64,000 bases of DNA, taken from contig JBIKWI010000002.1 of the NCBI GenBank assembly GCA_044356395.1, positions 1,357 to 65,356 on the forward strand. Direction: 5' to 3'. Every line of letters begins with the position of its first letter. Position 1 is the first letter of the stretch. This DNA comes from Tagaea sp. GTDB taxonomy: Bacteria; Pseudomonadota; Alphaproteobacteria; CACIAM-22H2. Positions 6,732-33,039 of this stretch are shown here, in pieces. The position numbers and the translations under genes are program-made. The notes under the pieces are model-generated. The model saw only the letters and a program-made list of their open reading frames with translations, made no database searches and was not told where the DNA came from.

Positions 6732-6802
6732 CGATCAACCATCCACTTCTGGAAAAACCGGACCGGCGGCCGCCGCCATGCGATGGCCGCCGGTCCCGGA
6801 TG

Positions 6803-7798: not shown

Positions 7799-8011
7799 TT
7801 GATTTCTCCCCATCAGCGGTTTTTGGCCCGAAGCGGCGGGCTTTGCGGATTCGGTTTCAACCAATCCGATACTTATGCACTACAATTCATGGGCGACAGA
7901 CAGTCAAGAATGAAACGAAACCTGTTGGCCGATTAATGATTTGCATCTGTGAATCTAAGATTTTCGAGATCTAGATACTAAAACCAAGTTTCGAATGGTT
8001 GCCCATGTTGG

Positions 8012-11987: not shown

Positions 11988-12884
11988 ATGCCCACGATGT
12001 CCGACGCCCCGGGCCATAGCCAGCCCGTGCCATTCACCATCCGTCCGCTTTCGGACAAGTTCGCCGCCGAGATCACCGGACTGGATCTGCGCGACCCGCT
12101 CGACGCTGCCACGCGCCGGGCCGTTCTGGACGCATTGATCCGCTACAAGGCGATCTGTTTCCGCGACCAGTCCCTCAGCGGGGAGCAGCAGGTCGTGTTC
12201 ACCCAGCAATTCGGCCCGCTGGAACTCTTCACCATCGCCAACCGGAGCATCGACAACCCCCTGCCGCTGCTGAACATCGTCAGCAACCTCGGCAAGGACG
12301 GCAAGCCGACCGGCAACCTGGAGACCCGGCGCTGGCACACCGACAAATCCTTCCTCGCCACGCCCTGCTTCGCAACCATCCTGCATCCGGTCATCCTGCC
12401 GCCGGCCGGCGGCGAGACCTGCTTTGCCGACATGAGTGCGGCCTACGAGGCGATGTCGGCGAAAGAAAAGGCCGAACTCGAGAACGTCCGCGTCGTCCAC
12501 AGCCGCGAATACTCGATGCGGCGGGCCGGAAAAGTGCCCACGCCCCAGGAGATCGAAGACGCAGGCCCGCCGATGGCGCATCCGCTGGTCCGCGTGAATC
12601 CCTACTCGGGGCGCAAGGGGCTGTTCATGGGCGAGCACGCCTCGCACCTTGAAGGCCGGGAAGATGAAGGCCGGGCGCCCATCGATGCCCTCGAAGCCTA
12701 TGCGACCCAGGAGAAGTTCGTGTACCGCCATGCTTGGCGCAAGGGCGACGTGCTGGTGTGGGACAACGGCAGCCTGCTGCACCGAGGGAACGACAATTTC
12801 AATGTCGGCCTGCAGCCGCGCGTCCTGCATCGTACCTGCCTGAGCGGGCTGCTGCCGAAGCTGGAGGTTGCGGCGGCTTCCTGA
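11988..12884 (+). CDS. TauD/TfdA-family Fe(II)/2-oxoglutarate-dependent dioxygenase
   Basis: HTD facial triad (RRWHTDKSF), distal His (HPLVRVNP) and a C-terminal R (VLVWDNGSLLHRG); 298 aa. Confidence 0.8.
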   Translation: MPTMSDAPGHSQPVPFTIRPLSDKFAAEITGLDLRDPLDAATRRAVLDALIRYKAICFRDQSLSGEQQVVFTQQFGPLELFTIANRSIDNPLPLLNIVSNLGKDGKPTGNLETRRWHTDKSFLATPCFATILHPVILPPAGGETCFADMSAAYEAMSAKEKAELENVRVVHSREYSMRRAGKVPTPQEIEDAGPPMAHPLVRVNPYSGRKGLFMGEHASHLEGREDEGRAPIDALEAYATQEKFVYRHAWRKGDVLVWDNGSLLHRGNDNFNVGLQPRVLHRTCLSGLLPKLEVAAAS

Positions 12885-12987
12885 GCCGCGAATCCGGACA
12901 CCGTATCGCTCCGCCCCCACGTTGCCGCAACACGCCATGCGCCACCCGTCGACGACATTCCCGGCTGAATTTGAAGGAGAAACCCCC

Positions 12988-13956
12988 ATGAAGCGACTCG
13001 TCAAACTGACCCGGCGCAGCCTGCTGTCCGCCGCCGTGCTGCTGAGTATTGCGCCCATGGCGCACGCACAGTCCTTTCCGACCCGCGAGATCACCCTCGT
13101 CATTCCCTTCGGCATCGGCGGATCGACCGACATCATCGGGCGGCAGTTCGCCGGCGAGCTGGCGAAGGTGCTGGGCGCGAAGATCAACGTCGAGAACAAG
13201 CCCGGCGGGACGGGCACGATCGGCAGCACCCAGGTCATCCAGTCCAAGCCGGACGGCTACACGATCGGCTTCGTCGCGAACGACGCGCTGGTGTTGCAGC
13301 CACTGCTGAACCCCGCCCTCGTCTTCAAGACGCCCGACGACTACCAGCCGATCGTCAAGCTGGGCTACCGCTCCGACGTGCTTTACGTGCGCGCCGAAGC
13401 CCCGTGGAAGACCTATGCCGAGTTCTTCGCCGAAGCCAAGCAGAACCCCGGCAAGATGCGCGTGGCCATCCCCGGCGTCGGCACGCTGGGCGAACTCACG
13501 ATCCAGAAGCTGAACAAGGTGGCGGGCGTGCGCATGGTGACGGTTCCCTTCAGCGGGGGCGGCGCCGAAGCGACGCTGGCCGTGCTGGGCGGACGCGTCG
13601 AAGCCAGTGCCGGCTCGGTCTCGGTGGGCGCCGGCCAGGTTGCCGCGGGCAAGCTGCGCGCGCTCGCGGTGTTCCAGCGCGGCAAGCACGCCGTGTTTCC
13701 GGATGCGTCGTCGATCGACGACGCCCACGGCGACGTGTCGCTGCTGGCCGAGTTCTATGTCTTCGCCCCGAAGGGATTGCCCAAGGACGTGCTCGACAAG
13801 CTCGTCGCTGCCTCGATGCAGGTCGGCCGCAGCGAGGAGTGGGCGGCGTTCGCCCGGAAGCAGGATTTCACGCCCGACGTGAAGGGACCCGACGCGACGA
13901 AGGAAGACCTGCTGAAGCAGGGCAAGGACTTCGCCGAACGCCTCGCCAACAGATAG
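12988..13956 (+). CDS. tctC: tripartite tricarboxylate transporter substrate-binding protein TctC (Bug family)
   Basis: Signal peptide MKRLVKLTRRSLLSAAVLLSIAPMAHA, Bug-family core (PGGTGTIGS, GVGTLGEL); RBS GAAGGAGA upstream of ATG 12988. Confidence 0.85.
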   Translation: MKRLVKLTRRSLLSAAVLLSIAPMAHAQSFPTREITLVIPFGIGGSTDIIGRQFAGELAKVLGAKINVENKPGGTGTIGSTQVIQSKPDGYTIGFVANDALVLQPLLNPALVFKTPDDYQPIVKLGYRSDVLYVRAEAPWKTYAEFFAEAKQNPGKMRVAIPGVGTLGELTIQKLNKVAGVRMVTVPFSGGGAEATLAVLGGRVEASAGSVSVGAGQVAAGKLRALAVFQRGKHAVFPDASSIDDAHGDVSLLAEFYVFAPKGLPKDVLDKLVAASMQVGRSEEWAAFARKQDFTPDVKGPDATKEDLLKQGKDFAERLANR

Positions 13957-13974
13957 GCGGAACGCGCGCCCGCG

Positions 13975-14448
13975 ATGAACGTCACCCGCCTCCAGAAGCG
14001 CAAGGGCTACATCGCCATCGGCGCAGGCGGGCTCGTGCTTGCGGCCGGATATCTGGGTATGTCGGTGCAGCTCCCCTTCGGGGAACTGGCCCGGCCCGGG
14101 GCCAGCCTTTTCCCGATCATGGTCGGCGTCATCCTCGTGTTCGCAAGCCTGAGCACGCTGTGGGAGGGTTGGCGGACGCCGATGTCGGAACAGGTGGAGT
14201 TCCCTGTCCGCCACGACCGCCTGCGCCTGCTGGTGCTGGTGGGCGCGCTGTTCGTGTACATCCTGGCGCTGCCTTGGCTGGGACAGATCATCGCGAGTTC
14301 GCTGTTCCTGATCCTGCTCATGCGCGTTCTGTCCGACGTGGGCTGGCCGCGCGTGATCGTCTATTCGCTGATCATTTCCGGCACGCTCTACGCCGTGTTC
14401 GTGCGTCTGCTCAACGTCCCGATGCCGCGCGGCATCGTGGATCTCTGA
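13975..14448 (+). CDS. tctB: tripartite tricarboxylate transporter TctB (small 4-TM subunit)
   Basis: 157-aa hydrophobic protein between tctC and tctA. Confidence 0.75.
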   Translation: MNVTRLQKRKGYIAIGAGGLVLAAGYLGMSVQLPFGELARPGASLFPIMVGVILVFASLSTLWEGWRTPMSEQVEFPVRHDRLRLLVLVGALFVYILALPWLGQIIASSLFLILLMRVLSDVGWPRVIVYSLIISGTLYAVFVRLLNVPMPRGIVDL

Positions 14449-14464
14449 CGGAAGCGGACGCCCC

Positions 14465-15973
14465 ATGGATTCCCTCGACGGTCTCTGGTACGGGCTGAGC
14501 CTCGCCTTCACGTACCAGAACCTGCTCGCCGCATTTGCGGGCGCATTTGCCGGCACCGCGATCGGCGTGTTGCCGGGTTTCGGCCCGACCGCGGGCCTGG
14601 CACTGCTGCTGCCCTTCACCTTCTCGATGGGCCCGAGCACCGGGCTCATCATGATGTCGAGCATGCTCTATGGCGCGATGTACGGCGGCTCGACCACGGC
14701 CATCCTGATGAACATGCCGGGCGAAGCCGCTTCGGTGATGACCTGCATCGACGGCTACAAGCTCACCAAGAAGGGACGCGCCGGCGCCGTGCTGTTCATC
14801 GTCGCCGCCGGCTCTTTCATCGGCGGAACGATCTCCATCGTTGGCGTCATGCTGTTCGTGCCGACGCTCTCGCAGCTGGCCATCATCTTCGGCCCGGGCG
14901 AGTTCTTCGCGCTGACTGCGGGCGGCCTGCTGATGCTGTCGCGCATCTCGGCCGGAACGGTGGCGGCCGGACTGCTGCCGATGGCGATCGGCCTCCTGCT
15001 CAGCACCATCGGCCAGGAAGCGGTGTCGGGACAGTACCGCTTCACCTTCGGGCTCAACGACCTCAGCCAGGGGCTGGAACTGGCCGTGCTGGCGGTCGGC
15101 ATCTACGGTATCGCCGAGATCATGTTCGTCGTCGAATCGCTGGCCGGCCAGCCCAAGCCGATGCGGGTGCGGGTGCGCGAGATGCTGCCGACGCGCGAGG
15201 AGATACGACGCTCCTGGGCGCCGATGGGCCGCGGCACGATCGTCGGCTTCCTGTTCGGGCTGATCCCGGGGCCGGCCACCACGCTGTCCACCTTCACCGC
15301 GTACCGCCTCGAGAAGGCGGTTTCCAAGTACAAGGACGAGATCGGCGAAGGCGCGATCGAGGGGGTCGCCGCGCCCGAGACGGCCAACAATGCGGCGGCG
15401 ACCTCGCTGATGGTGCCCCTGCTCGGCCTCGGCATCCCGTTCAGCTCGGCGACGGCGCTGATGCTGGGCGCCATGATGGTGCACAATGTGCAGCCCGGTC
15501 CGCTGCTGATGACCAGCCACCCGGAGATCTTCTGGACCGTCATCGCGTCGATGTTCGTGGGCAACGTCATGCTGGTGGTGATCAACGTGCCCATGATCGG
15601 GGTCTGGGTCAGCATGCTGCGCATTCCCGCGTACATCCTGCTGCCGACGATCCTGATGATGGCCATCATCGGCTCCTATAGCCTGCGCAACAGCATGTTC
15701 GACGTGTCGCTGCTGCTGGTGCTCGGCATCCTGGGCTACGTGCTGCGCAAGCTGGAATTCCAGCTCGCACCGCTTGTGGTCGGCGTGGTGCTCGGACCGA
15801 TGATCGAAAAGCACTTCCGCGAAGGGCTCTACATGAGCCAAGGCGACCTTTCGGTGTTCTGGAGCAGTCCGATCGCGATCGGGATCTGGAGCCTGGTCCT
15901 CGCCGTCATCGCGCTCGGCGGCTTGACGCGCCTGTGGAAGCAGGTCTTCCCGCCGGGCGAGCGGGAAGCCTAG
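14465..15973 (+). CDS. tctA: tripartite tricarboxylate transporter permease TctA
   Basis: 502 aa; conserved TctA motifs (LPGFGPTAGLALLLP, MYGGSTTAILMNMPGEAASV, GVAAPETANNAAA). Confidence 0.85.
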   Translation: MDSLDGLWYGLSLAFTYQNLLAAFAGAFAGTAIGVLPGFGPTAGLALLLPFTFSMGPSTGLIMMSSMLYGAMYGGSTTAILMNMPGEAASVMTCIDGYKLTKKGRAGAVLFIVAAGSFIGGTISIVGVMLFVPTLSQLAIIFGPGEFFALTAGGLLMLSRISAGTVAAGLLPMAIGLLLSTIGQEAVSGQYRFTFGLNDLSQGLELAVLAVGIYGIAEIMFVVESLAGQPKPMRVRVREMLPTREEIRRSWAPMGRGTIVGFLFGLIPGPATTLSTFTAYRLEKAVSKYKDEIGEGAIEGVAAPETANNAAATSLMVPLLGLGIPFSSATALMLGAMMVHNVQPGPLLMTSHPEIFWTVIASMFVGNVMLVVINVPMIGVWVSMLRIPAYILLPTILMMAIIGSYSLRNSMFDVSLLLVLGILGYVLRKLEFQLAPLVVGVVLGPMIEKHFREGLYMSQGDLSVFWSSPIAIGIWSLVLAVIALGGLTRLWKQVFPPGEREA

Positions 15974-19933: not shown

Positions 19934-20009
19934 GGTCGGAGCGGAGGGATTCGAACTCTCGACATCCAGCTCCCAAAGCTGGCGCTCTACCAGGCTGAGC
20001 TACGCTCCG
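19934..20009 (-). tRNA. tRNA-Pro (anticodon TGG); 3'-terminal CC is encoded but the final A is not
   Basis: Reverse complement CGGAGCGTAGCTCAGCCTGGTAGAGCGCCAGCTTTGGGAGCTGGATGTCGAGAGTTCGAATCCCTCCGCTCCGACC has C1-G72, anticodon loop TTTGGGA and one A/C mismatch in the T stem. Confidence 0.8.
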
Positions 20010-20757: not shown

Positions 20758-21240
20758 TCAGCGGAACATCGCGTGGACGAGCCTGTCGCCTTTCTTCAAG
20801 CCCAGGCGCGCGACCGTTCCGCCGTTCAGTTCCAGCACCGCGCGCACGTTCTCTTCCGACGAAATGATGGCCTCGGACATCGGCACCGCGCGCTCGTGGA
20901 TGTGGCGCACGATCCCCTCCCGGTCGACGAACAGCATGTCGAGCGGGATGAGCGTGTTGCGCATCCACATCGCGACGGGCGAGTCGCGCTTGAAATCGAA
21001 CAGCATGCCCGCGTCGGCGGCCATCTGGCGCCGATGCATCAGGCCCAGCGTGCGCCGCTCGTCGTTGTCCGCGAACTCGACCGTGAAACGGTGCCGCTTC
21101 CCCCCGCTCTCGATCGTCAGCTCCGACTTTTCGAAGCGGACGTTCGGATTCTGCGCCGCCGCCGGCAAGCCGAACGCGAAGGCCAGTGTCAGCGCCATCA
21201 GGGTACGTCGTGTCGTCATCATCGGTACCTTTGCCTTCAT
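20758..21240 (-). CDS. DUF192-domain protein with signal peptide
   Basis: Signal peptide MKAKVPMMTTRRTLMALTLAFAFGLPAAA and a DUF192-like core (GLMHRRQMAADAGMLFDF...MWMRNTLIPLDMLFVD). Start ATG 21240 overlaps the AcuC stop. Confidence 0.6.
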   Translation of the reverse strand: MKAKVPMMTTRRTLMALTLAFAFGLPAAAQNPNVRFEKSELTIESGGKRHRFTVEFADNDERRTLGLMHRRQMAADAGMLFDFKRDSPVAMWMRNTLIPLDMLFVDREGIVRHIHERAVPMSEAIISSEENVRAVLELNGGTVARLGLKKGDRLVHAMFR

Positions 21241-22343
21241 GCCGCCCGGCGGACCATGTCGACGATCTCGGGGCGGACAGGGCCGCCCGCCGGCGCATCG
21301 CGCAACGTCGTGAACCACGCTTCCGGCCTGATTTGATCCTTTCGCCGGTGCCAGTGCAAGGCCCGGAGGATCGTCTCCGCCGGTGCCGGCAGACGCTCGG
21401 GAATCTCGAGGCCGTTCAACGTGGCCCACATGCCGCTCCACGCGCGCGCCACGCTCCAAGGATTGTAGCCCCCGCCGCCCGTCATCAGCATCGGCCGGTC
21501 GAGCGACATGAGGGCCGCGGCCGCGCGCCACAGCGCGTTGTTGGACAGCGCCAGGTTCGACAGCGGATCGTCGGCCAGCGCGTCCGCTCCGCCCTGCACG
21601 ACGAGCGCGCCCGGATCGAACGCCGCGACACACGGCAACACGACTTCGTCCATCAGCAAGGCGAATTCGTCGTCGTTCAGGCCTGCCGGAACCGGCAGGT
21701 TGACCAGCGTCGCCGGTGCCGCCGGATCGAAGACGCCTGTGTTCGGCCAGCGCCCGGCTTCGTGGATCGACACGACCAGCACGCGCGGATCGTCCGTAAA
21801 GGCCGCCTCGACCCCGTCGCAGTGATGCGCGTCGATGTCGACATAAGCGACGCGCGCGATGCCCCGGTCAAGCAGGCGCAGGATCGCCAGGACCGGATCG
21901 TTGAGATAGCAGAAGCCGCTCGCCGCCGCCTTCCGGCCGTGATGGGTTCCGCCGGCCGGCGAATAGACCGTCCGCACCTCGCCGCCTGCCAGCAGATCGG
22001 CCGCATGGAGCGACGCGCCGCACGCGGTCGCCGGCCTGCGGAAGATCTCGCCGAAGACCGGATTGCCGCCGCGCCCGATATTGAAGCGGACGGAAGACTC
22101 GGCATCGATCGCCTGCGCGGCTTCCGCCGCCTGCAGGGCCGCGACGTATTCCGGGTCGTGGAAGCGCGTCAGTTCGTCGGGCGTGGCGGTCGGACTGTCG
22201 ATGTAGACCGCGTCGGGAAGCCAACCGAGCGCCCGGCACAGGTCGATGCAGGTCGACACGCGCGGGATCGCCAGCGGATGGTTCGAGCCGTAGCGCGACC
22301 GACGGTATATGTCCGAGCCGATGAAGCGGGGGCGTGCCGGCAT
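21237..22343 (-). CDS. histone deacetylase-family protein (AcuC/acetoin-utilisation-like)
   Basis: 368 aa; HDAC-fold motifs (GGTHHGRKAAASGFCYLND, YVDIDAHHCDGVE, MLMTGGGGY). Confidence 0.75.
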   Translation of the reverse strand: MPARPRFIGSDIYRRSRYGSNHPLAIPRVSTCIDLCRALGWLPDAVYIDSPTATPDELTRFHDPEYVAALQAAEAAQAIDAESSVRFNIGRGGNPVFGEIFRRPATACGASLHAADLLAGGEVRTVYSPAGGTHHGRKAAASGFCYLNDPVLAILRLLDRGIARVAYVDIDAHHCDGVEAAFTDDPRVLVVSIHEAGRWPNTGVFDPAAPATLVNLPVPAGLNDDEFALLMDEVVLPCVAAFDPGALVVQGGADALADDPLSNLALSNNALWRAAAALMSLDRPMLMTGGGGYNPWSVARAWSGMWATLNGLEIPERLPAPAETILRALHWHRRKDQIRPEAWFTTLRDAPAGGPVRPEIVDMVRRAA

Positions 22344-22397
22344 GCGAAGGAGTTAGTGCCGCTTGCCATCTGCGTCAACGAGGCGCTATATCGGGAC

Positions 22398-22480
22398 GTT
22401 CGCACGGGGTGCCGGCAGTGTGCCGGCTGAGATCACACCCGAGAACCTGATCCGGTTCGTACCGGCGTAGGGATGCGCGC
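22398..22480 (+). promoter_or_regulatory. TPP (THI-box) riboswitch immediately upstream of the ABC importer start codon
   Basis: ACGGGGTGCC...GGCTGAGATCACACCC...GAACCTGATCCGGTTCGTACCGGCGTAGGGA matches the THI-element consensus (GGGGUGCC / CUGAGA / ACCC / CUGAUC...GCGUAGGGA). P1 pairs CGCA/TGCG; an AGGGA SD-like segment lies 7 nt before TTG 22481. Confidence 0.75.
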
Positions 22481-23239
22481 TTGACCTTCGACCGACCTCC
22501 TCCCGTTTTCGACGTCGATATCCGTGCCGCCGGCGTTGCGTACGACGGCGTCGCGCTGTTCGACGGGCTCGACCTGCACCTCGCGTCCGGGCGCATCGTC
22601 TGCCTTCTCGGACCTTCGGGCGTGGGTAAGAGCACGCTGCTGCGGCTCGTCGCAGGGCTTGCACCTGCCTCGCCGGGAACTCGGATCGTGGCCGGCGACG
22701 GACGGCCGCTCGACGGGCGCATCGCCTGGATGGCACAGCAGGACCTGCTCTGTCCGTGGCTCGATGTGCTGGAGAACGTGTCGCTCGGCAGCCGGCTGCG
22801 CGGCACGCCGCCAGACAGGGACCATGCCCTTGACCTGATCGGAAAGGTCGGGCTTGCCGACAAGATCCACGCGATGCCCACAACGCTGTCGGGCGGCCAG
22901 CGCCAGCGCGCGGCCCTCGCCCGTACGCTGATGGAGGACCGGCCGCTCGTGCTGATGGACGAGCCGTTCGCCGCCCTCGACACGATCACGCGCTGGCGAC
23001 TGCAGGAACTGGCCGCAACGCTGCTCGCCGGCCACACGGTTATGCTCGTCACGCACGATCCGCGCGAAGCACTGCGTCTGGGTCACGAGATCCGCGTGAT
23101 CTCCGGCCAGCCCGCGATGCTGGGGCCCGCCCTGCAGCCGCCCGGCCCCGTTCCGCGACCGGTGGACGCCCCCGATCTGCTGGCACTGGAGGCGAAGCTG
23201 ATCGGCGAGCTCGCCCGCGCCGCCGGTGCGTCCGCATGA
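22481..23239 (+). CDS. ABC transporter ATP-binding protein (NitT/TauT family; ThiZ-like)
   Basis: Walker A GPSGVGKST, signature LSGGQRQRA, Walker B LVLMDEPFAALD. TTG start directly follows the riboswitch. Confidence 0.8.
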   Translation: MTFDRPPPVFDVDIRAAGVAYDGVALFDGLDLHLASGRIVCLLGPSGVGKSTLLRLVAGLAPASPGTRIVAGDGRPLDGRIAWMAQQDLLCPWLDVLENVSLGSRLRGTPPDRDHALDLIGKVGLADKIHAMPTTLSGGQRQRAALARTLMEDRPLVLMDEPFAALDTITRWRLQELAATLLAGHTVMLVTHDPREALRLGHEIRVISGQPAMLGPALQPPGPVPRPVDAPDLLALEAKLIGELARAAGASA

Positions 23240-23991
23240 TGCGCGTCCTGCGCCCGCTCCTCGTCCTTGCCGGCGTGTGCATCGCATGGGAGCTCGTCGT
23301 GCGCGCGACCGGCGTGCCCCATTACATCCTGCCGGGGCCGATGCGTGTGGCGAACGCGCTTGCCAGCCAGTACGTATTCATTCTCGAAAATGCGGCGATC
23401 ACGCTGCTCGAAATGGTCCTCGGGCTGGTGCTGGGCGTGTCGTTCGGCATCTTCTGGGCGTTGCTGCTCGCCCAGTCGCGCGCTGCGCGGCGCTGGTTCC
23501 TGCCGCTCGTCCTGGCGAGCCAGGCGATCCCGGTCTTCGCGATCGCACCGCTTCTCGTCCTGTGGTTCGGCTTCGGCATCGCCTCGAAGGTGGCCGCCGC
23601 CGCCCTCATCATCTTCTTTCCCGTGACTTCGGCCTTCTACGACGGTCTGATGCGCGCCGACCGCGGGTGGCTCGATCTCGCGCACGTGATGGGCGCACGC
23701 CCGCTTGCGGTATTGCTGCGCCTGCGCGTGCCGGCGGCCCTGCCCGCCCTTGCTTCCGGCATTCGCGTGGCTGCCGCCGTCGCGCCCATCGGCGCCGTGA
23801 TCGGGGAATGGGTGGGCGCGTCCGCCGGCCTCGGCTTCCTGATGCTGCAGGCCAACGCGCAGATGCAGATCGACCTGCTGTTCGCCGGCCTCGTCGTCCT
23901 CGCCGTCTTCGCGATCGGCTTCTATGCCGTCATCGACCTTGCCTTGCGCCGTCTCGTGCCGTGGCAGCCCGTCACCGCCCGAACCGACTGA
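23236..23991 (+). CDS. ABC transporter permease (ThiX-like)
   Basis: 251-aa membrane protein overlapping the ATPase stop by 4 nt; BPD-transporter fold. Confidence 0.8.
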   Translation: MMRVLRPLLVLAGVCIAWELVVRATGVPHYILPGPMRVANALASQYVFILENAAITLLEMVLGLVLGVSFGIFWALLLAQSRAARRWFLPLVLASQAIPVFAIAPLLVLWFGFGIASKVAAAALIIFFPVTSAFYDGLMRADRGWLDLAHVMGARPLAVLLRLRVPAALPALASGIRVAAAVAPIGAVIGEWVGASAGLGFLMLQANAQMQIDLLFAGLVVLAVFAIGFYAVIDLALRRLVPWQPVTARTD

Positions 23992-24013
23992 ACTACCGGA
24001 AGGACCTTCAAAG

Positions 24014-24976
24014 ATGATTTCCCGACGCACCGCGATCGCCAGCGCCATCGCCGCACTCGCGGCCCCTGCCCTCGTCCGCACGGCGGCGGCGCAGGGCCAG
24101 CCCTTCACGCTGCTGCTCGACTGGTTCATCAACCCGAACCACGGGCCGATCCTGGCGGCACAGGAGCTCGGCTATTTCCGCGAGGCCGGGCTGGCGATTG
24201 CCATCGTGCCGCCGGCCGATCCGAACGACCCGCCGCGTCTCGTCGCGGCCGGTCGCGGCGACGTCGCGGTCAGCTATCCGCACACGCAGATCCGGCAGGC
24301 CGTCGACGACATCCCGACGATGCGCATCGGCGCGCTGATCGACACGCCTTTGTCGACCATCACGGTGCTGGCCGACGGGCCGATAAAGACGCTGGCGGAT
24401 TTCCGCGGCCGCAAGATCGGCTACTCCATTTCGGGCATCGAGGGGGCCCTGCTGCGCACCATGCTGGCCACGGCAGGCGTCGGGGCGAACGAGATCGAGC
24501 TGATCAACGTCAACTTCTCGCTGTCGCCGGCCCTGCTGAGCAAGCGCGTGGACGGCGTCATCGGCGCGTTCAGGAACTTCGAGCTGTTCCAGCTCGAGAT
24601 CGAGGGTTCGAAAGGTCGCGCCTTCTTCCTCGAGGAGCACGGCGTGCCGACCCACGACGCGCTCACCTTCACGGCGAACCGCGAGCGCGCCCGTGCGGGC
24701 GATCCGCGCCTACGCGCCTTCCTGGACGCGGTCGAGCGCGGCGCCCTCTATTGCACCAACAATCCCGATGCGGCATGGGGCCTGTTCATCAAGGGACGCG
24801 GACAGCTCGACAACGAGCTCAACCGCCGAGCCTGGCGGGCGAGCGTGCCGCGCTATGCGCACACGCCGGGCGCAGTCGACAAGGCACGCGAGCTGCGGTT
24901 CGCGAAATTCCTGCACGCCAACGGCATAATCCCGCACGTCCCGCCGATCGACAGCTTCGTCGCCCAGCTTGCCTGA
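24014..24976 (+). CDS. ABC substrate-binding protein, NMT1/THI5-like (ThiY-like, probable HMP/thiamine-precursor binding)
   Basis: Signal peptide MISRRTAIASAIAALAAPALVRTAAA and an NMT1/THI5-like fold (TLLLDWFINPNHGPILAAQELGYF). Confidence 0.75.
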   Translation: MISRRTAIASAIAALAAPALVRTAAAQGQPFTLLLDWFINPNHGPILAAQELGYFREAGLAIAIVPPADPNDPPRLVAAGRGDVAVSYPHTQIRQAVDDIPTMRIGALIDTPLSTITVLADGPIKTLADFRGRKIGYSISGIEGALLRTMLATAGVGANEIELINVNFSLSPALLSKRVDGVIGAFRNFELFQLEIEGSKGRAFFLEEHGVPTHDALTFTANRERARAGDPRLRAFLDAVERGALYCTNNPDAAWGLFIKGRGQLDNELNRRAWRASVPRYAHTPGAVDKARELRFAKFLHANGIIPHVPPIDSFVAQLA

Positions 24977-24979
24977 GGG

Positions 24980-26842
24980 CTACTTCGCGGCCTGCGGCGA
25001 TGCCGCGACCGCCTCGGCCTCGATGCGCGCCTGCGCCTCGCGCGTCTCGAGCTGCCGTCGCCACATCTGGGCATAGACGCCGTCGGCGGCGAGCAGGCCG
25101 GCATGCGTGCCGCGCTCGACGACGCTGCCCTTCTCGAGCACGACGATCTGGTCGGCATCGACGACCGTCGACAGCCGGTGCGCGATCGTCAGCGTCGTGA
25201 CGCCCACGGAAATCTGGCGCAGCGATTCCTGGATCGCCTTCTCGGTGCGCGTGTCGAGGGCACTGGTCGCCTCGTCAAACACCAGCAGCTTCGGACGCTT
25301 CAGGATCGTGCGCGCGATCGACACGCGCTGGCGCTCGCCGCCCGAAAGCTTCAGGCCGCGCTCGCCGACGCGCGTCTGGTAGCCGTCCGGCAGGGACAGC
25401 ACGAACTCGTGGATGCGCGCCAGACGCGCCGCCTCCTCCACCTCTTCCTTCGTCGCGGAGGGCCGGCCGTAGGCGATGTTGTAGTAGATCGTGTCGTTGA
25501 ACAGCACCGTATCCTGCGGGACGATGCCGATCGCCGCACGCACGGACGACTGCGTGACGTCGCGCAGGTCCTGCCCGTCGATCTTCACGGCGCCGCCGGT
25601 CACGTCGTAGAAACGGAACAGCAGGCGCGAGATCGTCGACTTGCCGGCGCCCGACGCGCCAACGATGGCGAGCGTCTTGCCGGGCGGCACATCGAGATCG
25701 ATGCCGTTGAGGATTGACCGGCGTTCGTCGTAGCCGAACGTCACGTTCTCGAACCGGACATGGGCGCCGGCGACCGCCAGCTCTGCGGCGTCCGGCTTGT
25801 CGACGACCTCGGCGTTCGCGTGCAGCAGCTTGAACATCGACTGCATGTCGATCAGCGCCTGGCGGATCTCGCGATAGACCATGCCGAGAAAGTTGAGCGG
25901 CAAATAGAGCTGGATCAGGTAGGCGTTGACCATCACGAAGCCGCCAACGGTCATTGCGCCCGCCGCCACGTCGAACGCGGCCAGCAGCATCACGAGCGTC
26001 AGGCCGATGGCGATGACGAAGCCTTGCCCGACATTGAGGATCGAGAGCGACGTCTTGGACAGCACCGCCGCGCGCTCGTAGGCCTCGAGCGAACGGTCGA
26101 AGCGGCGCGCCTCGTGGCCCTCGTTGCCGAAATACTTGACCGTCTCGTAGTTGAGCAGGCTGTCGACCGCCTTGGTCGACGCTTCGCCCTCGGCTTCCAG
26201 CATGGCGCGCCGGTAGCGGAGCCGCCACGCGGTGATCGCGAAAGTGTACGCTACGTAGAGCGCGATGGTGACGAACGTGACCGCCGCGAAGCGCCAGTCG
26301 TAGAGGTACCAGAGAATACCGCAGACGAGCGTGATCTCCAGGAATGTCGGCACCACCTGGAACAGCATGAAGTGCAGGAGGTTCTCGATACCCGCCGTCC
26401 CGCGCTCGATCGCGCGGTTGAGCCCGCCGGTCTGCCGGTCGAGATGGAAGCGCAGCGACAGGCGATGCAGGTGCTGGAAGGTTTCCAGGGCCACCTTGTG
26501 CATGGCCTGGTGCGCCACGCGGGCGAACACGATCTCGCGCAGCTCGCCGAAGGCCTGCGAGAGAATGCGCGCGCCGCCATAGGCGAGCACGATGCCGACC
26601 GGCACCACGACGGCAGCGCCGCCGGCGCTGGAAAGCGCGTCGACGGCGTGGCGGTAGAAAAACGGCACTATGATCGTGGCGAGTTTGGCGGCGACCAGCA
26701 GCAGCACGGCGGCCACGACGCGGACGCGGACTTCCGGCCGGTCCTTCGGCCAGAGATACGGGAGAAGCCGCGTGACGGTGCGGACTTCATGGTCGGCAAC
26801 GCCTGGGACGTGGAGTGGGTCGGCGGGATTCGCTCTGCGCAT
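24980..26842 (-). CDS. ABC transporter ATP-binding/permease fusion (Atm1/HMT1-like exporter)
   Basis: 620 aa; N-terminal 6-TM domain plus NBD (GASGAGKSTISRLLFRFYD, LSGGERQRVSIART, LVFDEATSALD). Confidence 0.8.
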   Translation of the reverse strand: MRRANPADPLHVPGVADHEVRTVTRLLPYLWPKDRPEVRVRVVAAVLLLVAAKLATIIVPFFYRHAVDALSSAGGAAVVVPVGIVLAYGGARILSQAFGELREIVFARVAHQAMHKVALETFQHLHRLSLRFHLDRQTGGLNRAIERGTAGIENLLHFMLFQVVPTFLEITLVCGILWYLYDWRFAAVTFVTIALYVAYTFAITAWRLRYRRAMLEAEGEASTKAVDSLLNYETVKYFGNEGHEARRFDRSLEAYERAAVLSKTSLSILNVGQGFVIAIGLTLVMLLAAFDVAAGAMTVGGFVMVNAYLIQLYLPLNFLGMVYREIRQALIDMQSMFKLLHANAEVVDKPDAAELAVAGAHVRFENVTFGYDERRSILNGIDLDVPPGKTLAIVGASGAGKSTISRLLFRFYDVTGGAVKIDGQDLRDVTQSSVRAAIGIVPQDTVLFNDTIYYNIAYGRPSATKEEVEEAARLARIHEFVLSLPDGYQTRVGERGLKLSGGERQRVSIARTILKRPKLLVFDEATSALDTRTEKAIQESLRQISVGVTTLTIAHRLSTVVDADQIVVLEKGSVVERGTHAGLLAADGVYAQMWRRQLETREAQARIEAEAVAASPQAAK

Positions 26843-26885: not shown

Positions 26886-29836
26886 CTAGTCGGCAGCCTG
26901 CCCGGCCCGGCTGCCGGCGGCGGCAAGATGGCGCACGACGAGTGCGAGCAGCGCATCCTTGCGGAACGGCTTGGAGATGAAGTCGTCCATGCCGGCGGCT
27001 AGTGCGGCTTCCCGGTCCGTCTCGAACGCGTTCGCGGTGACCGCGACGATGGGTACGCCGGCCCCGTCGCCGTCGAGCGCCCGGATCGCGGCGGTCGCCG
27101 CGTAGCCGTCCATCTCCGGCATGTTGACGTCCATCAGGATCAGGTCGTAGGGCGCCACGCGCTGGGCTTCGACCGCCTCAAGTCCGTTGCCCGCCGTGTC
27201 GACGCGCAGGCCGATCGGCTCGAGCATCGCCGACACGATCAGCCGGTTGGTCTGGTTGTCCTCCGCCAGGAGGATGCGCAGCGGCCGGCTGCGCGCGCGC
27301 GAAAGCCGCTCGATCTCGCCGGCCCAGTCCACGTTGCCGGGCTTTGCGTCGCTCTCGACGCTCGCCTGGGTCAGCAGAACATCGAACAGGAAAACGCTTC
27401 CCTTGCCGGGGGTGCTTTCGGCCCGCAGCTCGCCGCCCATGCGCGCGACGAGACGGCGCGAGATGGCAAGGCCCAGACCCGTGCCGCCGAAGCGCCGCGC
27501 GATCGACCCGTCGAGCTGCTCGAACTCGCGGAACAGGCGCGGCAGGCGGTCGGCCGGAATGCCGATGCCGGTATCACGCACCGAGAACCAGCCGCGGATC
27601 CGCCCGTCGGGCTGCACGCGCGCCGACGCCTCGACCCGCACGCTGCCCTGCTCGGTGAACTTGATCGCGTTCGACAGCAGGTTGAGCAGCACCTGGCGCA
27701 GGCGGCCGGGATCGCCGCGCAGGCGCTCGGGAACGTCGCCGTTCATCTGCCACTCGAGCGTCAGGTTCTTCGCCTTCGCGCGCGCCGCGACGATTTCGAT
27801 GGTCGAACGGACGAGCGCGTTGAGGTCGAAGGCGAGATCCTCGAACTCCAGCCGTCCCGCCTCGAGCTTCGAGAAGTCGAGCACGTCGTTGATGATCTGC
27901 AGCAGCGAATCCGAGGCGTCGCGGATGGAATGCACGTAGAGCCGCTGCTGGGAATCGAGGGCGGTGTCCAGCAGCAGGCTCGCCATGCCCATCACGCCGT
28001 TGATCGGCGTGCGGACCTCGTGGCTCATCGTCGCGAGGAAGCGCGACTTGGCGTCGCTCGCCGCCTCGGCCGTTTCCTTGGCCTGCGTCAGCGCGCGGGT
28101 CGCCGCGATGTCGGCGGTCACGTCCTGCAGCAGGTGGATCTCGCCGCCGCTCGCCGTCGAGAAGCCGATCCCGCGGATCGTCGGCCATCGGCGAGATGCC
28201 GGTCGTAGGGCACGCCGCCGCGCACGACGAACGACAGCCGGTCGACGACCCACGCTTCGCGCTCCGCGGCCGGCACGGCGAACAGCGGGGCGGCGGCGTG
28301 CAGATGCATCAGGTCGTAGGCGAGCATGCCGACCTCGATCTGCCCGCGCACGTGCGGATACATCTCCTCGTACTTGCGGTTCCACATCAGGACCCGCCGG
28401 CTGGCGTCGAACATAAGGAAGGCGTCGCGCAGCGCCTCGATGCCGTCGCGCAGCGTGCGTTCGCTGTCCTCGGCGCGGATCTTCGCGATGGCGAGCGCCT
28501 GGCGCGCTTCCATCTCCTCGGTCATGTCGCGCCCGGAGCCGCGATAGCCCGCGAACCGTCCCGCGTCGTCGAAGATCGGCTTGCCGCTGATCGACAGGAA
28601 GCGGCGCCTTCCGATCGCGTCGAACCGCTCGTAGCGGAAGTCGCGGAACGCCTCGCGCCGTTCGAGCTGGGCGCGGTGCGCGGCCCACCCGCTTTCGTCC
28701 ACGCCCATCACGCCCAGCTCGTCGCGCCGCATGCCGTACTGCGATTCCGGCTGCGTGCCGGAAAGCCGGTAGTTGGAATCCGAAAGAAACGTGAAGCGCA
28801 GATCGGCGTCCTGCTCCCAGAACCAGTCGGCGGTCGTCTCGGCGAAATCGCGGAAGCGCCGCTCGCGGTCCAGGATCGCGTGCTGGGCGGACTCCAGCTC
28901 GTCGAGCCGTCGGCGCAGCAGCCAGGCCATCGCGAATACCGCCAGCGAGGCAAGCAGGGCGGCCCCCACGATAGGCACGTCCATGGCCCGCGCGTGCGCC
29001 GCCATGTCGGCGGCGGCGATCTCGACGAAGATGGCGATTGGCCATTCGCCGATCCATTCGAAGGCCGCCAGCCGGTCGACGCCGTCGATCGGCGTCGGCG
29101 CGCGCACGAGGGCACCGCCGTCGGCGACGAGTGCCGCCCACGCCGCATGGCCGCGAAGATCGTGGACAGTGGCATCGACATTGCCGCCGGAGGAAACGCG
29201 TACGCGCGTCAGCCCATCCTGCCCGACCAGGCCGACGGCGCCGTCGCTGCCGAGATCGACCGCCGAAGCGATCGCGAGAAGGCGCGCCGGCATCATCGAG
29301 ACCACGACGACGCCCTCGAACGCGCCCGACGGGCCGTCGATGCGCCGCGACAGCGGGATCGAATTGTTGTTCGACACGCGGCTCACGCGCGGCGCGCCGA
29401 GGAACGGAACGTCGCCGGTGCCGTCGCGATGGAAGACGAAGAAGTCCCGGTCCGCGACGTCGGCCGTTGCGGCGCTCGTGCCCGACACGGCGACGAGATT
29501 GCCGGCAGCGTCGGCGACGGCGACGAAGTCGATCAGCCCCGGCGCCGAGGCGGCGAGACGGTCGAGCAGCTCGGCGTCGAGACCCGACATGCGCCGATGG
29601 AAGGTGACGGCAAGCCGGGCGATGCGGTCGACCGATTCGAGCGTGCGCTCGACGCTCTCGCGCGAAAGCCGGCACGTCTCCATCAGCGACTGCGTGGCGG
29701 CTTCGACGGAATGCGTGCGCTGCGAATGGAGGGCGACACCGGCAAGCGCCCAGATCATGCCGGCGACGGCCAACGCGATCGCCAGCACCCGATCCACGCG
29801 CACATGCACGAAGGAGGCCCGGCGCGGAACGCTCAT
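26886..29836 (-). pseudogene. hybrid sensor histidine kinase/response regulator (Cache-TM-PAS-HisKA-HATPase-REC) interrupted by a -1 frameshift near 28185-28200
   Basis: N-terminal part (29836-28118: dCache-like periplasmic domain, TM, PAS) ends ...RHLADGRRSAG* in one frame. The kinase continues in the -1 frame as ...TIRGIGFSTASGGEIHLLQDV...ATMSHEVRTPINGV... through HATPase and receiver to 26886. No start codon is available for the downstream part. Confidence 0.6.
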
Positions 29837-30022
29837 GATCGATGCACCCGCATAATCCCCCGCACATCGTCGAGGATAGGCTTTCGAGCCTAACGGGGCA
29901 AGTTCCGCGACGCGGCCCGTACTTGCACGCGATTTGCCCCTCCGCTACAACCCGTACGACCGGGGATGGCGCGAAAGAACCATGTTTTCAGCGCCCCCGC
30001 AGGCACAAAACGGGAGGAAACC

Positions 30023-31003
30023 ATGACGATCCAGAATCTGAGCCGACGTTCGCTTCTCCAGTACTCCGCCGCGGCGGCGGCACTGGCGGGCGTGCCGGGC
30101 ATCGCCGACGCCCAGACCATCGACCGCCTGCGCATGTACATCCCCGCGGCACCGGGCGGCGGCTGGGACCAGACGGGCCGCTCGATCGAGCAGGTCATGC
30201 GCGCCGCCGGCATCATGTCCAACTTCCAGTTCGAGAACGTGCCGGGTGCCGGCGGTGCGGTCGGCCTGCCCCGCTTCCTCGCCATGCGCGGCCAGGGCGA
30301 CATGCTGATGGTCGGCGGCATGGTGATGGTCGGCTCGCTGATCGCGAACAAGAGCCCGGTCAAGATCACCGACGCGACCGCGATCGCGCGCCTGACCGGC
30401 GAGTTCCAGGTCGTCGTCGTGCCGCCCAACTCGCCGCACAAGGACATGAAGAGCCTCGCCGCCGCCGTCAAGGCGAACCCGGGTTCTGTCTCGTGGGCCG
30501 GCGGTTCGGCCGGCGGCACCGACCACATCCTCGTGGGCATGATCGGCCAGTCGCTCGGCGTCGAGCCCAAGGCGATGAGCTACGTCGCGTTCTCCGGCGG
30601 CGGTCCCGCCCAGGCTGCGATCCTCGGCGGACAGACGACCTGCGGCGTGTCCGGCTGGGGCGAGTTCGCCGAACAGGTCAAGGCCGGCCGCCTGCGCGCC
30701 ATCGCGATCTCGGCGCCGAACCGCCAGGCCGGCATCGACGTGCCGACGCTGATCGAGCAGGGCATCAACGTCGAGCTGTTCAACTGGCGCGGCGTGTTCG
30801 CCACGCCGGGCGTCAGTGCCGCACAGCGCACCGCGCTTCTCGGCCTCGTCGACCGCATGGCCAAGAGCAGCCAGTGGAAGGAAGAGTGCGAGAAGCGCGA
30901 CTGGACCCAGATCTACCAAGCGGGCGACGATTTCGGGAACTACGTGAAGGCCGAAGTCACGCGCATCGAAGGCGTGCTGCGCGGTCTGGGCCTCGCGGCC
31001 TGA
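30023..31003 (+). CDS. tctC: TctC (Bug-family) substrate-binding protein, second copy
   Basis: Tat/Sec-like signal peptide MTIQNLSRRSLLQYSAAAAALAGVPGIADA, Bug-family core; RBS GGGAGGAAA upstream. Confidence 0.85.
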   Translation: MTIQNLSRRSLLQYSAAAAALAGVPGIADAQTIDRLRMYIPAAPGGGWDQTGRSIEQVMRAAGIMSNFQFENVPGAGGAVGLPRFLAMRGQGDMLMVGGMVMVGSLIANKSPVKITDATAIARLTGEFQVVVVPPNSPHKDMKSLAAAVKANPGSVSWAGGSAGGTDHILVGMIGQSLGVEPKAMSYVAFSGGGPAQAAILGGQTTCGVSGWGEFAEQVKAGRLRAIAISAPNRQAGIDVPTLIEQGINVELFNWRGVFATPGVSAAQRTALLGLVDRMAKSSQWKEECEKRDWTQIYQAGDDFGNYVKAEVTRIEGVLRGLGLAA

Positions 31004-31076
31004 CCGGGATCGACTGAAGGCAAGTCACGGCGCGGGCCGGAAGACGGCCCGCGCCGTTCCGTTTCGGGGGGAATGG

Positions 31077-31550
31077 ATGTCGTTGCGACTGTCGGCCGAG
31101 TTCTGGTGCGGCCTGTGCGTGCTCGGCTTCGCCGCGATCGTCGGCTACGAGGCATCGCTGATCCCGACATCGCTCTACGCGCGCGTGGGTCCGCAGGTGG
31201 TCCCCTTCGCGGTCGCGGGCGGGCTTGCGCTGCTGGGCATCGTCCTGCTCGTGCAGAACGCGCGCGGCACATGGGACACGTCGGGCGATCCGGAACTCAC
31301 CCTGCCGATCGACTGGCGCAGTGCCCGCTGGCTGCTGCTGGGCCTGGCACTCAACCTTTCGCTGATCGCCGACGCGGGCTTCATCGTCGCGTCGAGCCTG
31401 CTGTTCGCGTGCACCGCGCGCTGCTTCGGCAGTGCCAACCCGCTCAAGGACGTGGCCCTCGGCATCGTCCTTTCGGCGACGGCGTATTTCGGTTTCTCAA
31501 AGGGCCTCGGCATCAATATCGGCGCCGGGCCGATCGAGGCGCTTTTCTAG
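31077..31550 (+). CDS. tctB: TctB small membrane subunit, second copy
   Basis: 157-aa hydrophobic protein between tctC and tctA. Confidence 0.7.
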
Positions 31551-31551
31551 G

Positions 31552-33039
31552 ATGGACACGCTCGCATCACTCGCCGACGGCTTCGCGGTCGCGCTCACCG
31601 CCCACAATTTGATGTTCGCACTGCTGGGCACGTTCCTGGGCACGGCCATCGGCGTGCTGCCCGGCCTCGGGCCGGCACTGACCATCGCGCTGCTGCTGCC
31701 CATCACCTACAAGGTCGACGCGACGGGCGCCTTCATCCTGTTCGCGGGCATCTATTACGGCGCCATGTACGGTGGCTCGACGACGTCGATCCTGCTGAAC
31801 ACGCCGGGCGAGAGTGCCACCATCGTGACGGCCCTCGAAGGCAACAAGATGGCCAAGCGCGGGCGCGCGGGTGCCGCCCTTGCCACCTCGGCGATCGGCA
31901 GCTTCGTCGCCGGAACCATCGGCACGATCGGCATCACGTTCCTTGCCCCCATCGTCGTGGAGCTGGCGCTGAAGTTCGGCCCGGCCGAGTATTTCTGCCT
32001 GATGGTGCTGGCCTTCGTGACCGTGTCGGCCGTGCTCGGCAACTCGACCTCGCGCGGCCTCGTGTCGCTGTTCTTCGGTATCTGGCTCGGTCTCATCGGC
32101 ATCGACCTGCAGACCGGCCAGCCGCGCTTCACGTTCGGCCTGCTCGAACTGCTCGACGGCATCAACGTGATCGTCGTGGCCGTGGGCCTGTTCGCGGTCG
32201 GCGAGACGCTGTGGCTCGCCTCGCGCCATGCGCACGGCAAGGACGAGCTGCTGGCGCTGTCCGGCTCGCTGTGGATGACCAAGGAAGAGTGGAAGCGCAG
32301 CTGGAAGCCTTGGTTCCGCGGCACAGGCCTCGGCTTTTCCATCGGCGCGCTGCCGGCGGGCGGTGCGGAAATCCCGACTTTCCTTTCGTACTATCTGGAG
32401 AAGAAGCTGTCGGTGAAGCCCGAGGAGTTCGGCCACGGCGCCATCGAAGGCGTCGCCGGTCCCGAGGCCGCCAACAACGCGTCGGCCGCCGGCGTGCTGG
32501 TTCCCATGCTCACGCTCGGCCTGCCCACGTCGGCCACTGCCGCGATCATGCTGTCGGCCTTCCAGAGCTACGGCATCCAGCCCGGCCCGCTGCTGTTCCA
32601 GAACCAGGCCACGCTCGTGTGGGGCCTGATCGCCTCGCTCTACATCGCCAACGTGATGCTGCTGGTGATGAACCTGCCGCTGGTGCCGCTGTGGGTGAAG
32701 ATCCTCGCAATCCCCAAGCCGTGGCTCTATGGCGGCATCCTCGTTTTCGCGACGATCGGCACCTACGGCATCAGCCAGAGCGTGATCGACCTCGTGTTGC
32801 TCTACGCGGTCGGCCTGATCGGCTACGCGATGCGCCGGTTCGACTTCCCCTCCGCACCCGTCATCATCGGCATGATCCTCGGACCGCTGGCCGAGCAGGA
32901 GCTGCGCCGCGCGCTGACAATCAGCCAAGGCGACTGGACCGTGTTCCTCACCCGCCCGCTGTCGGCCACGCTGATCGCCATCGCCCTGCTCGCCCTCGCC
33001 GGCCCGCAGATCTGGGCCGCCTTCCAGCGCCGGAAATAG
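31552..33039 (+). CDS. tctA: TctA permease, second copy
   Basis: 495 aa; TctA motifs ([50 protein letters not shown]). ATG 31552 directly follows the tctB stop. Confidence 0.85.

Follow-up and report, generated by a model that had tools for sequence, protein, structure and literature searches.

The window analysed here, a 64-kb stretch of DNA (64,000 nucleotides) from an uncultured Tagaea-like alphaproteobacterium, contains a TPP riboswitch followed directly by three successive genes on the same strand, which overlap or are closely spaced and encode an ABC ATPase, an ABC permease and an NMT1/THI5-type binding protein. The genes are named thiZ, thiX and thiY below. The features of the locus are as follows:

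22363-22391, + strand: putative sigma-70-type promoter (-35 TTGCCA at 22363-22368, 17-nt spacer, -10 CTATAT at 22386-22391)
22395-22490, + strand: TPP riboswitch aptamer (THI element), RF00059, with the paired core at 22398-22480
22398-22404 with 22474-22480, + strand: aptamer helix P1
22405-22410 with 22438-22444, + strand: aptamer helix P2
22411-22415 with 22422-22426, + strand: aptamer helix P3
22427-22432, + strand: CUGAGA, ligand-sensor sequence 3' of P3, read from the sequence
22446-22471, + strand: aptamer helices of the P4/P5 arm
22445-22455, + strand: ACCUGAUCCGG, sensor sequence of the P4/P5 arm, read likewise
22465-22473, + strand: GCGUAGGGA, sensor sequence of the P4/P5 arm, read likewise
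22469-22473, + strand: SD-like AGGGA within the universally conserved UAGGGA of the aptamer, 7 nt 5' of the TTG, with a putative SD role
22481-23239, + strand: thiZ, ABC ATPase subunit of 252 aa (PF00005, ABC_tran, 2.3e-25), with its TTG start right after P1
23236-23991, + strand: thiX, ABC permease of 251 aa (PF00528, BPD_transp_1, 4.5e-30), whose ATG overlaps the thiZ stop (ATGA)
24014-24976, + strand: thiY, exported NMT1/THI5-type substrate-binding protein of 320 aa (PF09084, 2.1e-63), with its own SD GGAAGGA at 24001-24007

The preliminary description of this DNA had proposed a canonical THI element in the 5' leader and had named an Rfam covariance-model scan as a way to check it. In a cmscan run at gathering thresholds, the TPP family RF00059 matched 22395-22490 on the + strand with 66.2 bits (gathering score 54.3 bits; E = 8.7e-11), and the match covers the complete model from position 1 to 105. 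In the resulting alignment P1, P2, P3, P4 and P5 are all paired, the conserved P2-P5 pairings included, and the sole non-canonical pair of the aptamer is the outermost one of P1 (U22400-C22478). Of all elements, the optional P3a hairpin alone is absent. Both sensor sequences of the TPP class are present, CUGAGA after P3 and ACCUGAUC...GCGUAGGGA in the P4/P5 arm, and the unconstrained MFE fold of 22398-22500 is exactly the aptamer fold. An alignment of 54 related aptamers showed that the core motif columns are invariant, while one P5 pair reads C-G in 47 of them and U-A in the other 7. The pairing of P1 is kept despite sequence change, with at least six different complementary pairs across the loci (for example UCACUG/CAGUGA, CGCA/UGCG, ACUC/GAGU, CCAC/GUGG and ACAUCG/CGGUGU); this conservation was scored by script, as the MAFFT alignment was too poor there and at P3 to allow a formal statistic of covariation. 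RNAalifold on that alignment recovered only P2, P4 and P5, because P1 and P3 are misaligned by MAFFT. The region 22398-22480 is thus confirmed as a canonical TPP riboswitch by model score, helices, sensor sequences and compensatory change, as had been claimed.

The order ATPase, permease, binding protein given in the preliminary description is borne out by the Pfam domains in the three existing ORFs. For thiY, the start is most likely the ATG at 24014 rather than the listed 23924, since GGAAGGA lies 7 nt upstream and a twin-arginine signal then stands at the N-terminus. This N-terminus (MISRRTAIASAIAALAAPALVRTAAAQ), read by eye, contains a twin-arginine motif and an A-x-A site, and the RR motif is kept in the family consensus; the protein is therefore predicted to be exported by a Tat-like signal peptide. 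The best sequence match of ThiY in the PDB is 3IX1, the formylaminopyrimidine-binding ThiY of Bacillus halodurans (E = 9.6e-33). The AF2 model of the window protein (pLDDT 89.3) also has 3IX1 as its top fold match in Foldseek (TM 0.80/0.84), at an identity of only about 26%, and the best SsuA structure is 3KSX (TM 0.68/0.75, 8.3e-16). The assignment of the binding protein to the NMT1/THI5-like proteins, made earlier from the letters of the DNA, is upheld by the PF09084 domain and by 3IX1 as the nearest relative in both sequence and fold.

The top NCBIfam names for the ATPase and the permease are sulfonate/taurine models, and Pfam NMT1 also takes in the THI5 enzymes, so that the genes could be read as a sulfonate, taurine or nitrate importer behind a TPP-like sequence, or the NMT1 protein as a THI5-type HMP-P synthase. 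All these NCBIfam scores are far below their cut-offs (ATPase 149.6 vs 395; permease 73.7 vs 347; ThiY against SsuA_fam 40.7 vs 163.5). The THI5 PLP-lysine, which we take to be K62 of yeast THI5, aligns with Ser87 of ThiY, a residue invariant across the family, and the twin-arginine signal peptide also speaks against an enzyme of this type. Furthermore, a TPP aptamer is associated with at least 66 of the 80 orthologous transporter loci. The other NMT1/SsuA-like binding protein of the window, at 6803-7864, is unrelated to ThiY (E = 0.72) and has no riboswitch. Scores, signal peptide, Ser87 and the recurrence of the riboswitch together effectively refute both readings, which we regard as extremely improbable, and the view of the preliminary description that this is not a nitrate/sulfonate system stands.

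The substrate is predicted to be the pyrimidine moiety of thiamine, that is HMP, formylaminopyrimidine (FAMP) or a close vitamer. The literature places thiXYZ under THI-element regulation and describes the binding of formylaminopyrimidine by ThiY, and in the rhizosphere Rhizobium leguminosarum requires its homologue along with thiD and thiM. Orthologues are named 'putative hydroxymethylpyrimidine transport system substrate-binding protein' by JGI, and in Desulfobulbales they stand in the TPP-led operons thiM-AIRS-thiD-thiZXY and thiM-thiE-thiZXY. Another reading is the uptake of intact thiamine, or of thiamine and precursors, rather than of the pyrimidine moiety only: the structure 4NMY from Clostridium difficile, which has the same fold as ThiY (TM 0.76/0.81; sequence 2.2e-15), was solved with thiamine bound, and 'Pyrimidine(/B1) transport' is the entry for thiY in a marine study. 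The FAMP-binding 3IX1 is, however, much nearer to ThiY by E-value than 4NMY and comes first by fold, and the enzymes with which the orthologues share operons (ThiD, ThiM, ThiE) are those for using precursors, not intact thiamine. We therefore consider the uptake of intact thiamine quite unlikely. Most probably, 22481-24976 is a thiZ-thiX-thiY operon for an ABC importer of the pyrimidine moiety, repressed by TPP through the canonical riboswitch.

A check of 26 large ORFs of the window showed no thiD, tenA, thiC, YlmB-type deformylase or other thiamine gene. The divergent HDAC-like gene at 21237-22343 was considered as the missing formylaminopyrimidine deformylase and rejected, being of the AcuC/HDLP type (1C3R, 1.4e-71). 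It is adjacent to the transporter genes in 26 of the 80 loci, and this adjacency is read as lineage synteny because DUF192 and MsbA-like neighbours come along with it and because it occurs in Rhodospirillales-type loci only.

The predicted leader of the operon is short. From the upstream stop to the Walker A motif of thiZ, TTG 22481 is the sole in-frame ATG, GTG or TTG, and it is kept in the closest locus (L001) while the following eight codons diverge. The last base of the extended P1, 22480, immediately precedes this TTG, and the element does abut the start codon as the preliminary description had stated. That description had also put the SD-like AGGGA inside the P1/J region, which needs correcting: the GA lies at the P4/P1 junction, the AGG belongs to the 3' strand of P4, and neither is in P1. 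AGGGA is a conserved segment of the aptamer and the sole SD-like element of the thiZ leader, and its function as an SD is putative. A strict E. coli-type promoter scan found no promoter at the leader. The putative promoter at 22363-22391 resembles what we take to be the alphaproteobacterial consensus (CTTGAC-N17-CTATAT), and a TATA-like hexamer 11-14 nt 5' of P1 recurs in the alignment of related loci. Transcription from such a promoter would begin where P1 has its 5' end (about 22397-22399), and the 5' UTR of thiZXY would be approximately the aptamer alone, with a leader of 83 nt. A 3-codon mini-ORF with its AUG at 22473 overlaps the TTG start. No terminator-like site was found in 22200-25200, and P1 and the start codon are too close together for a separate expression platform to fit in.

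[quoted passage not shown] AGGGA (22469-22473), the 3' strand of P1 (22474-22480) and TTG 22481 follow each other, with neither a terminator nor a sequestering hairpin. Direct translation attenuation of thiZ, by TPP-dependent occlusion, is thus the most likely mode of control that the leader sequence predicts. The binding of TPP would lock P1, P4 and the three-way junction and so keep the 30S subunit from the SD-like element and the start codon. At low levels of TPP, P1, a short helix of four core pairs and two more, would breathe and thiZ would be translated; thiX, coupled in translation at the ATGA overlap, would follow, and thiY would use its own SD.

Several points weigh against direct occlusion as the whole explanation. 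TTG is a weak start codon. The AGG of the putative SD is paired in P4 in both the ligand-free and the ligand-bound models, and its unpaired probability in the unconstrained ensemble is 0.14-0.29. The same riboswitch and operon might be controlled mainly by strand exchange with the early coding region, or by Rho-dependent termination and mRNA decay after the block of translation; a review from 2024 counts TPP riboswitches among those with strand exchange and mentions dual translation/Rho control. In the MFE fold of a longer transcript of 161 nt, the SD region (22462-22474) pairs with coding positions 22517-22533, but this fold is no more stable than those of shuffled sequences and in fact less so (z = +1.5). 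The partner segment encodes a conserved peptide, and the pairing was dismissed as chance. Over positions +13 to +72 past the aptamer, CU-rich, anti-SD-like 4-mers show a 3.2-fold enrichment in 37 of the 41 loci of the direct type, and the window has such a stretch, CCUCCUCCC, at 22496-22504. Its predicted duplexes with the 5' or 3' part of the aptamer are, however, no stronger than those that control windows of the same gene would form; a better duplex than the control was found in only 15 of the 41 loci, a result with p = 0.07-0.12 in the wrong direction. For this reason the CU-rich stretch is not proposed as a switching partner. Relatives in which thiY comes first use a classical SD-sequestering hairpin (CCCGGAUCUCC...GGAGAUCC, for example in L033 and L036), a design for which the thiZ leader of the window has no room. 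Control by something other than direct occlusion alone is, on balance, rather unlikely, and direct attenuation remains our preferred reading.

The direct form is the dominant thiZXY leader type in the alphaproteobacterial order Rhodospirillales. In-frame starts no more than 15 nt from GGGA or GGAA occur in 27 of the 33 thiZ-first loci that a pattern search found, in another 8 that were found with Rfam and in one thiY-first locus of Pelagibacterales, which gives about 36 related loci altogether. In the remaining six thiZ-first loci, all from Azospirillum, an AUG at +7 in the extended P1 opens a short uORF of 14-20 codons that is coupled to thiZ. In two close relatives of the window locus (L002 and L003) an AUG start stands directly 3' of GGGA, at a spacing of 0 that rules out AGGGA as their SD. 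The 80 loci thus contain three leader designs in one transporter family: direct, uORF-coupled and with an SD-sequestering hairpin. A broader proposal, possible yet doubtful, is that the thiZXY leaders of Rhodospirillales form a coherent platform-free class of TPP riboswitches. In this class the start would lie at or inside P1 (with the coupled uORF in Azospirillum and the mini-ORF over the TTG in the window), and the only single-stranded landing site of the ribosome, as a standby or S1 site, would be a conserved stretch rich in pyrimidines within the first ~20 codons. If this is true, these leaders of 83 nt would offer a minimal model from nature for a riboswitch with a three-way junction that acts by direct occlusion.

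The pairing of a TPP riboswitch with thiXYZ has been known since 2002 and the arrangement is ordinary; both this pairing and platform-free 'direct' TPP control were predicted about 20 years ago. For the genome at hand, three generically named ABC genes gain a confidently predicted label, thiZXY for TPP-repressed uptake of the thiamine pyrimidine, which is of use where auxotrophy for vitamin B1 and the exchange of vitamers are to be predicted from environmental genomes. The modest added value lies in the survey of the 80 loci, whose three leader designs in one family make them convenient for tests of whether a TPP riboswitch acts by direct occlusion.

For the binding protein of Bacillus, a Gram-positive anchor is expected; unlike it, the ThiY of the window has a Tat-type signal for the Gram-negative periplasm. 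The gene order Z-X-Y also differs from that of ThiXYZ in Bacillus halodurans, which KEGG lists as thiX/thiY/thiZ, and no neighbouring genes for salvage (a YlmB-type deformylase, TenA) are seen among the large ORFs checked in the 64-kb window. The three components are otherwise the same, with a binding protein of the NMT1/THI5 family and a THI element predicted for thiXYZ in the literature. With the yeast THI5/NMT1 HMP-P synthases (4H65, 4ESX), ThiY has in common the fold and an LDW-x-N-x-x-H-like N-terminal motif. The yeast proteins are cytosolic suicide enzymes that use the PLP-lysine and a histidine, whereas ThiY is exported and has a serine at the lysine position. The thiM riboswitch of E. 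coli belongs to the same aptamer class, likewise without P3a, and is an OFF switch on translation initiation, as is predicted here. The thiM switch has a downstream platform where the SD is paired with an anti-SD; the window leader lacks such a platform, while the thiY-first relatives have one. Close counterparts, too, are the direct-attenuation TPP riboswitches (Rodionov et al., 2002; PMC2258182). Particular to the window is the TTG start abutting an extended P1. In both, the mechanism is a computational prediction, and the two share the lack of a platform, the purine-rich 3' end as RBS and the start right after P1.

A scan of the whole window against Rfam at gathering thresholds returned four matches, three tRNAs and one TPP riboswitch:

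22395–22490, + strand, TPP riboswitch RF00059 (66.2 bits, with the gathering threshold at 54.3; E = 8.7e-11; model positions 1–105)
3068–3141, − strand, tRNA (71.5 bits)
19936–20009, − strand, tRNA (65.5 bits)
50070–50142, + strand, tRNA (59.9 bits)

P1, P2, P3, P4 and P5 all form in the Rfam alignment, among them the P2–P5 pairings on which the preliminary description depended, and the minimum-energy structure of an unconstrained fold of 22398–22500 is exactly the aptamer fold, with P1 extended by U22399-G22479 and G22398-C22480. With the covariance-model score above threshold, the helices paired and this fold, the canonical THI element claimed there therefore stands. Only two departures from the TPP consensus were found: the outermost P1 pair, U22400-C22478, is non-canonical, and the optional P3a hairpin between UGAGA and ACCC is absent. 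P3a is missing in 355 of 907 aptamers (Barrick and Breaker, 2007; PMC2258182). Four related loci, given as L022, L038 and two in L071, likewise carry minus-strand tRNA genes at one end.

The aptamer had been described as abutting a TTG start, which the coordinates bear out: the 3' strand of P1 occupies 22474–22480, so thiZ starts directly after it, at TTG 22481. From the preceding stop codon to Walker A there is no other ATG, GTG or TTG in frame, and this TTG is kept in the closest locus although the following eight codons diverge. The sole SD-like element, AGGGA (22469–22473), lies 7 nt upstream of the TTG within the invariant aptamer UAGGGA. Its presence was correctly described but its placement in P1/J needs a slight correction, as AGG falls in P4 and GA in the junction. 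A promoter candidate read from the sequence (TTGCCA-N17-CTATAT, 22363–22391) would start the transcript at P1, and the whole ~83-nt 5' UTR would then be aptamer. A mini-ORF of three codons (22473–22484, AUG-CGC-GCU-UGA, MRA and stop) takes its AUG from the final A of GGGA and the two bases with which the 3' strand of P1 begins, and its UGA overlaps the thiZ TTG; the closest locus, L001, has the same arrangement.

Three successive plus-strand ORFs follow the aptamer, in agreement with the claimed ATPase-permease-binding protein operon, and both of its neighbours are on the minus strand:

21237–22343, − strand, AcuC/HDLP-type histone-deacetylase family (HDAC-like) gene, divergent, upstream of thiZ
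22481–23239, + strand, thiZ, ABC_tran ATPase (2.3e-25)
23236–23991, + strand, thiX, BPD_transp_1 permease (4.5e-30)
24014–24976, + strand, thiY, NMT1/THI5-like binding protein as claimed (PF09084, 2.1e-63), preferred start ATG 24014
24980–26842, − strand, MsbA-like exporter, convergent, downstream of thiY

The thiX ATG overlaps the ATPase stop codon (ATGA). The mechanical ORF of the binding protein begins at 23924, within the permease gene. A start at ATG 24014 is the more plausible, because GGAAGGA lies 7 nt upstream and the protein then opens with a twin-arginine signal, MISRRTAIASAIAALAAPALVRTAAAQ, whose RR motif is kept in the family consensus. No terminator-like site was found in 22200–25200. 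In the PDB the product of the HDAC-like gene is closest to Aquifex HDLP 1C3R (1.4e-71), and the ATG of the gene lies 20 nt from the putative −35 of the thiZ promoter. Of the 80 loci, 26 have this gene near thiZXY, accompanied by DUF192 and MsbA-like genes; all 26 are of the Rhodospirillales type, and the adjacency probably comes from synteny within the lineage and not from a shared function. A listed 291-aa ORF (20758–21633, − strand) overlaps it, with the DUF192 domain confined to residues 183–286; the true DUF192 gene is probably much shorter, with a start near 21200.

In NCBIfam the ATPase and permease come nearest to sulfonate/taurine models, but all scores are far under cut-off (149.6 against 395; 73.7 against 347), as is SsuA_fam on the binding protein (40.7 against 163.5). 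A sulfonate/nitrate importer was rejected, its defining features being absent. The nearest solved sequence of the binding protein is 3IX1 (9.6e-33), the N-formyl-4-amino-5-aminomethyl-2-methylpyrimidine-binding protein ThiY of Bacillus halodurans, which together with the NCBIfam scores agrees with the earlier view that a nitrate/sulfonate system is the less likely. The yeast THI5/THI13 enzymes come after it (~1e-16 to 5e-20). In an AlphaFold model built from a 21-sequence alignment (pLDDT 89.3), the predicted fold matches 3IX1 best (TM 0.80/0.84), then Thi5, then 4NMY, with SsuA and TauA lower. A THI5-type enzyme was rejected, since the protein is exported and carries Ser87, invariant in the family, at the PLP-lysine of THI5, which we take to be K62. 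Database relatives number in the thousands, many named by JGI 'putative hydroxymethylpyrimidine transport system substrate-binding protein'. Published work accords with precursor salvage: thiXYZ was found by way of THI elements, ThiY binds formylaminopyrimidine, and the Rhizobium leguminosarum homologue is needed in the rhizosphere, as are thiD and thiM. Homology cannot fix the exact substrate, because the fold family spans thiamine-bound 4NMY and RibXY, which is linked to an FMN riboswitch.

Taking one genome per species, 80 orthologous loci were returned, the nearest from a Tagaea sp. MAG of the Rhodospirillales (identity: ThiY 88%, HDAC-like 85%, MsbA-like 90%). The aptamer-core pattern was found in 56 and Rfam added 10, so that 66 or more of the 80 have a TPP aptamer; among the rest, several are truncated contigs. 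In Desulfobulbales the aptamer lies 1.5–3 kb upstream of the transporter genes:

L012, 1495–6900, TPP aptamer, thiM, AIRS-family (ThiL-like) gene, thiD, thiZXY
L056, 2802–6891, TPP aptamer, thiM, thiE, thiZXY

Of the evidence from gene context, what speaks most strongly for precursor salvage is this co-transcription with enzymes that use HMP and thiazole, namely the kinases and the coupling enzyme. In the loci where thiY comes first (L014, L021, L033, L036, L055, L068, L074), the same aptamer class precedes thiY alone. Their leaders carry a 90–210-nt platform in which a conserved CCCGGAUCUCC can pair with GGAGAUCC(G) of the SD region, a classical sequestering hairpin. A single transporter family thus has no fewer than three types of leader.

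The leader geometry of the window is widespread: 27 of 33 pattern-found thiZ-first loci and 8 further Rfam-found loci have an in-frame start no more than 15 nt from GGGA, and a Pelagibacterales thiY-first locus has one at +7. P1 pairing is maintained across loci by differing complementary sequences. In L002 and L003, one additional A brings the mini-ORF AUG in frame with thiZ, of which it is likely the start; AGGGA cannot be the SD there, because the AUG directly follows GGGA. In six Azospirillum loci (L018, L020, L041, L042, L044, L061), an AUG at +7 opens a uORF of 14–20 codons (~+7 to +67, counted after the aptamer GGGA). Four of these loci have the AUG within an extended P1 (CAGUGAUGG(C) paired with GCC-UUCACUG). 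The stop codon of the uORF and the AUG of thiZ overlap (AUGA) in four of the six; in the other two the stop is just upstream. The arrangement suggests that the riboswitch may control a leader peptide translationally coupled to thiZ.

The leader geometry in the window fits what Barrick and Breaker (2007; PMC2258182) term 'direct translation attenuation'. In their account, TPP, preQ1 and SAM-I are the classes where the RBS most commonly lies buried in the core of the aptamer, and the purine-rich conserved 3' region of TPP aptamers replaces the RBS (crediting Rodionov, 2002). TPP binding would lock P1, P4 and the junction, and the locked aptamer would deny the 30S subunit the SD-like AGGGA and the start codon; thiX translation would follow by coupling, and thiY would be translated from its own SD. 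We infer that this occlusion best explains thiZXY control. Two observations weigh against it: AGG is mostly paired even without ligand in the thermodynamic model, and the AUG of L002 and L003 comes right after GGGA. By strand exchange, the CU-rich stretch after the start (CCUCCUCCC at 22496–22504 in the window) would instead pair with an aptamer segment as a switching strand. Relative to the remainder of the gene, the first ~20 thiZ codons (+13 to +72) show a 3.2-fold enrichment of CU-rich, anti-SD-like 4-mers (CTCC/TCCC/CCTC/TCCG), which is seen in 37 of 41 loci of the direct type (Wilcoxon p = 3e-7, although these loci are not independent). However, the stretch is predicted to pair with aptamer segments no better than do control windows taken from the same gene, and is thus not evidence for strand exchange. 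It is a real compositional feature, and may serve as an unstructured ribosome landing site.

A second NMT1/SsuA-like ABC system (4321–7864, − strand), in contrast to thiZXY, is without a riboswitch and offers a useful internal contrast; the two binding proteins are unrelated in sequence (E = 0.72). It and other genes of the window are:

4321–5073 and 5898–6731, − strand, permeases of the second system
6803–7864, − strand, its binding protein
8012–8749, + strand, adjoining GntR/FCD regulator
11988–15973 and 29966–33039, two tripartite tricarboxylate transporter sets (TctC/TctB/TctA), the first adjoined by a TauD-family dioxygenase
26886–29867, − strand, hybrid histidine kinase, 993 aa

Every testable defining feature of a TPP riboswitch, of ThiXYZ and of the direct-attenuation type is present, and those of THI5 enzymes and sulfonate/nitrate importers are lacking. 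It is a tentative and rather doubtful proposal that the Rhodospirillales thiZXY leaders form a minimal direct-occlusion class, marked by starts or uORFs embedded in P1 and by a standby stretch rich in pyrimidines. A 2024 review puts TPP under strand exchange only, which points to the direct type being under-studied experimentally; the type itself is not new. Furthermore, thiZXY with a TPP riboswitch has been a known kind from 2002 on, and existing pipeline annotation gives its orthologues matching names (HMP transport).
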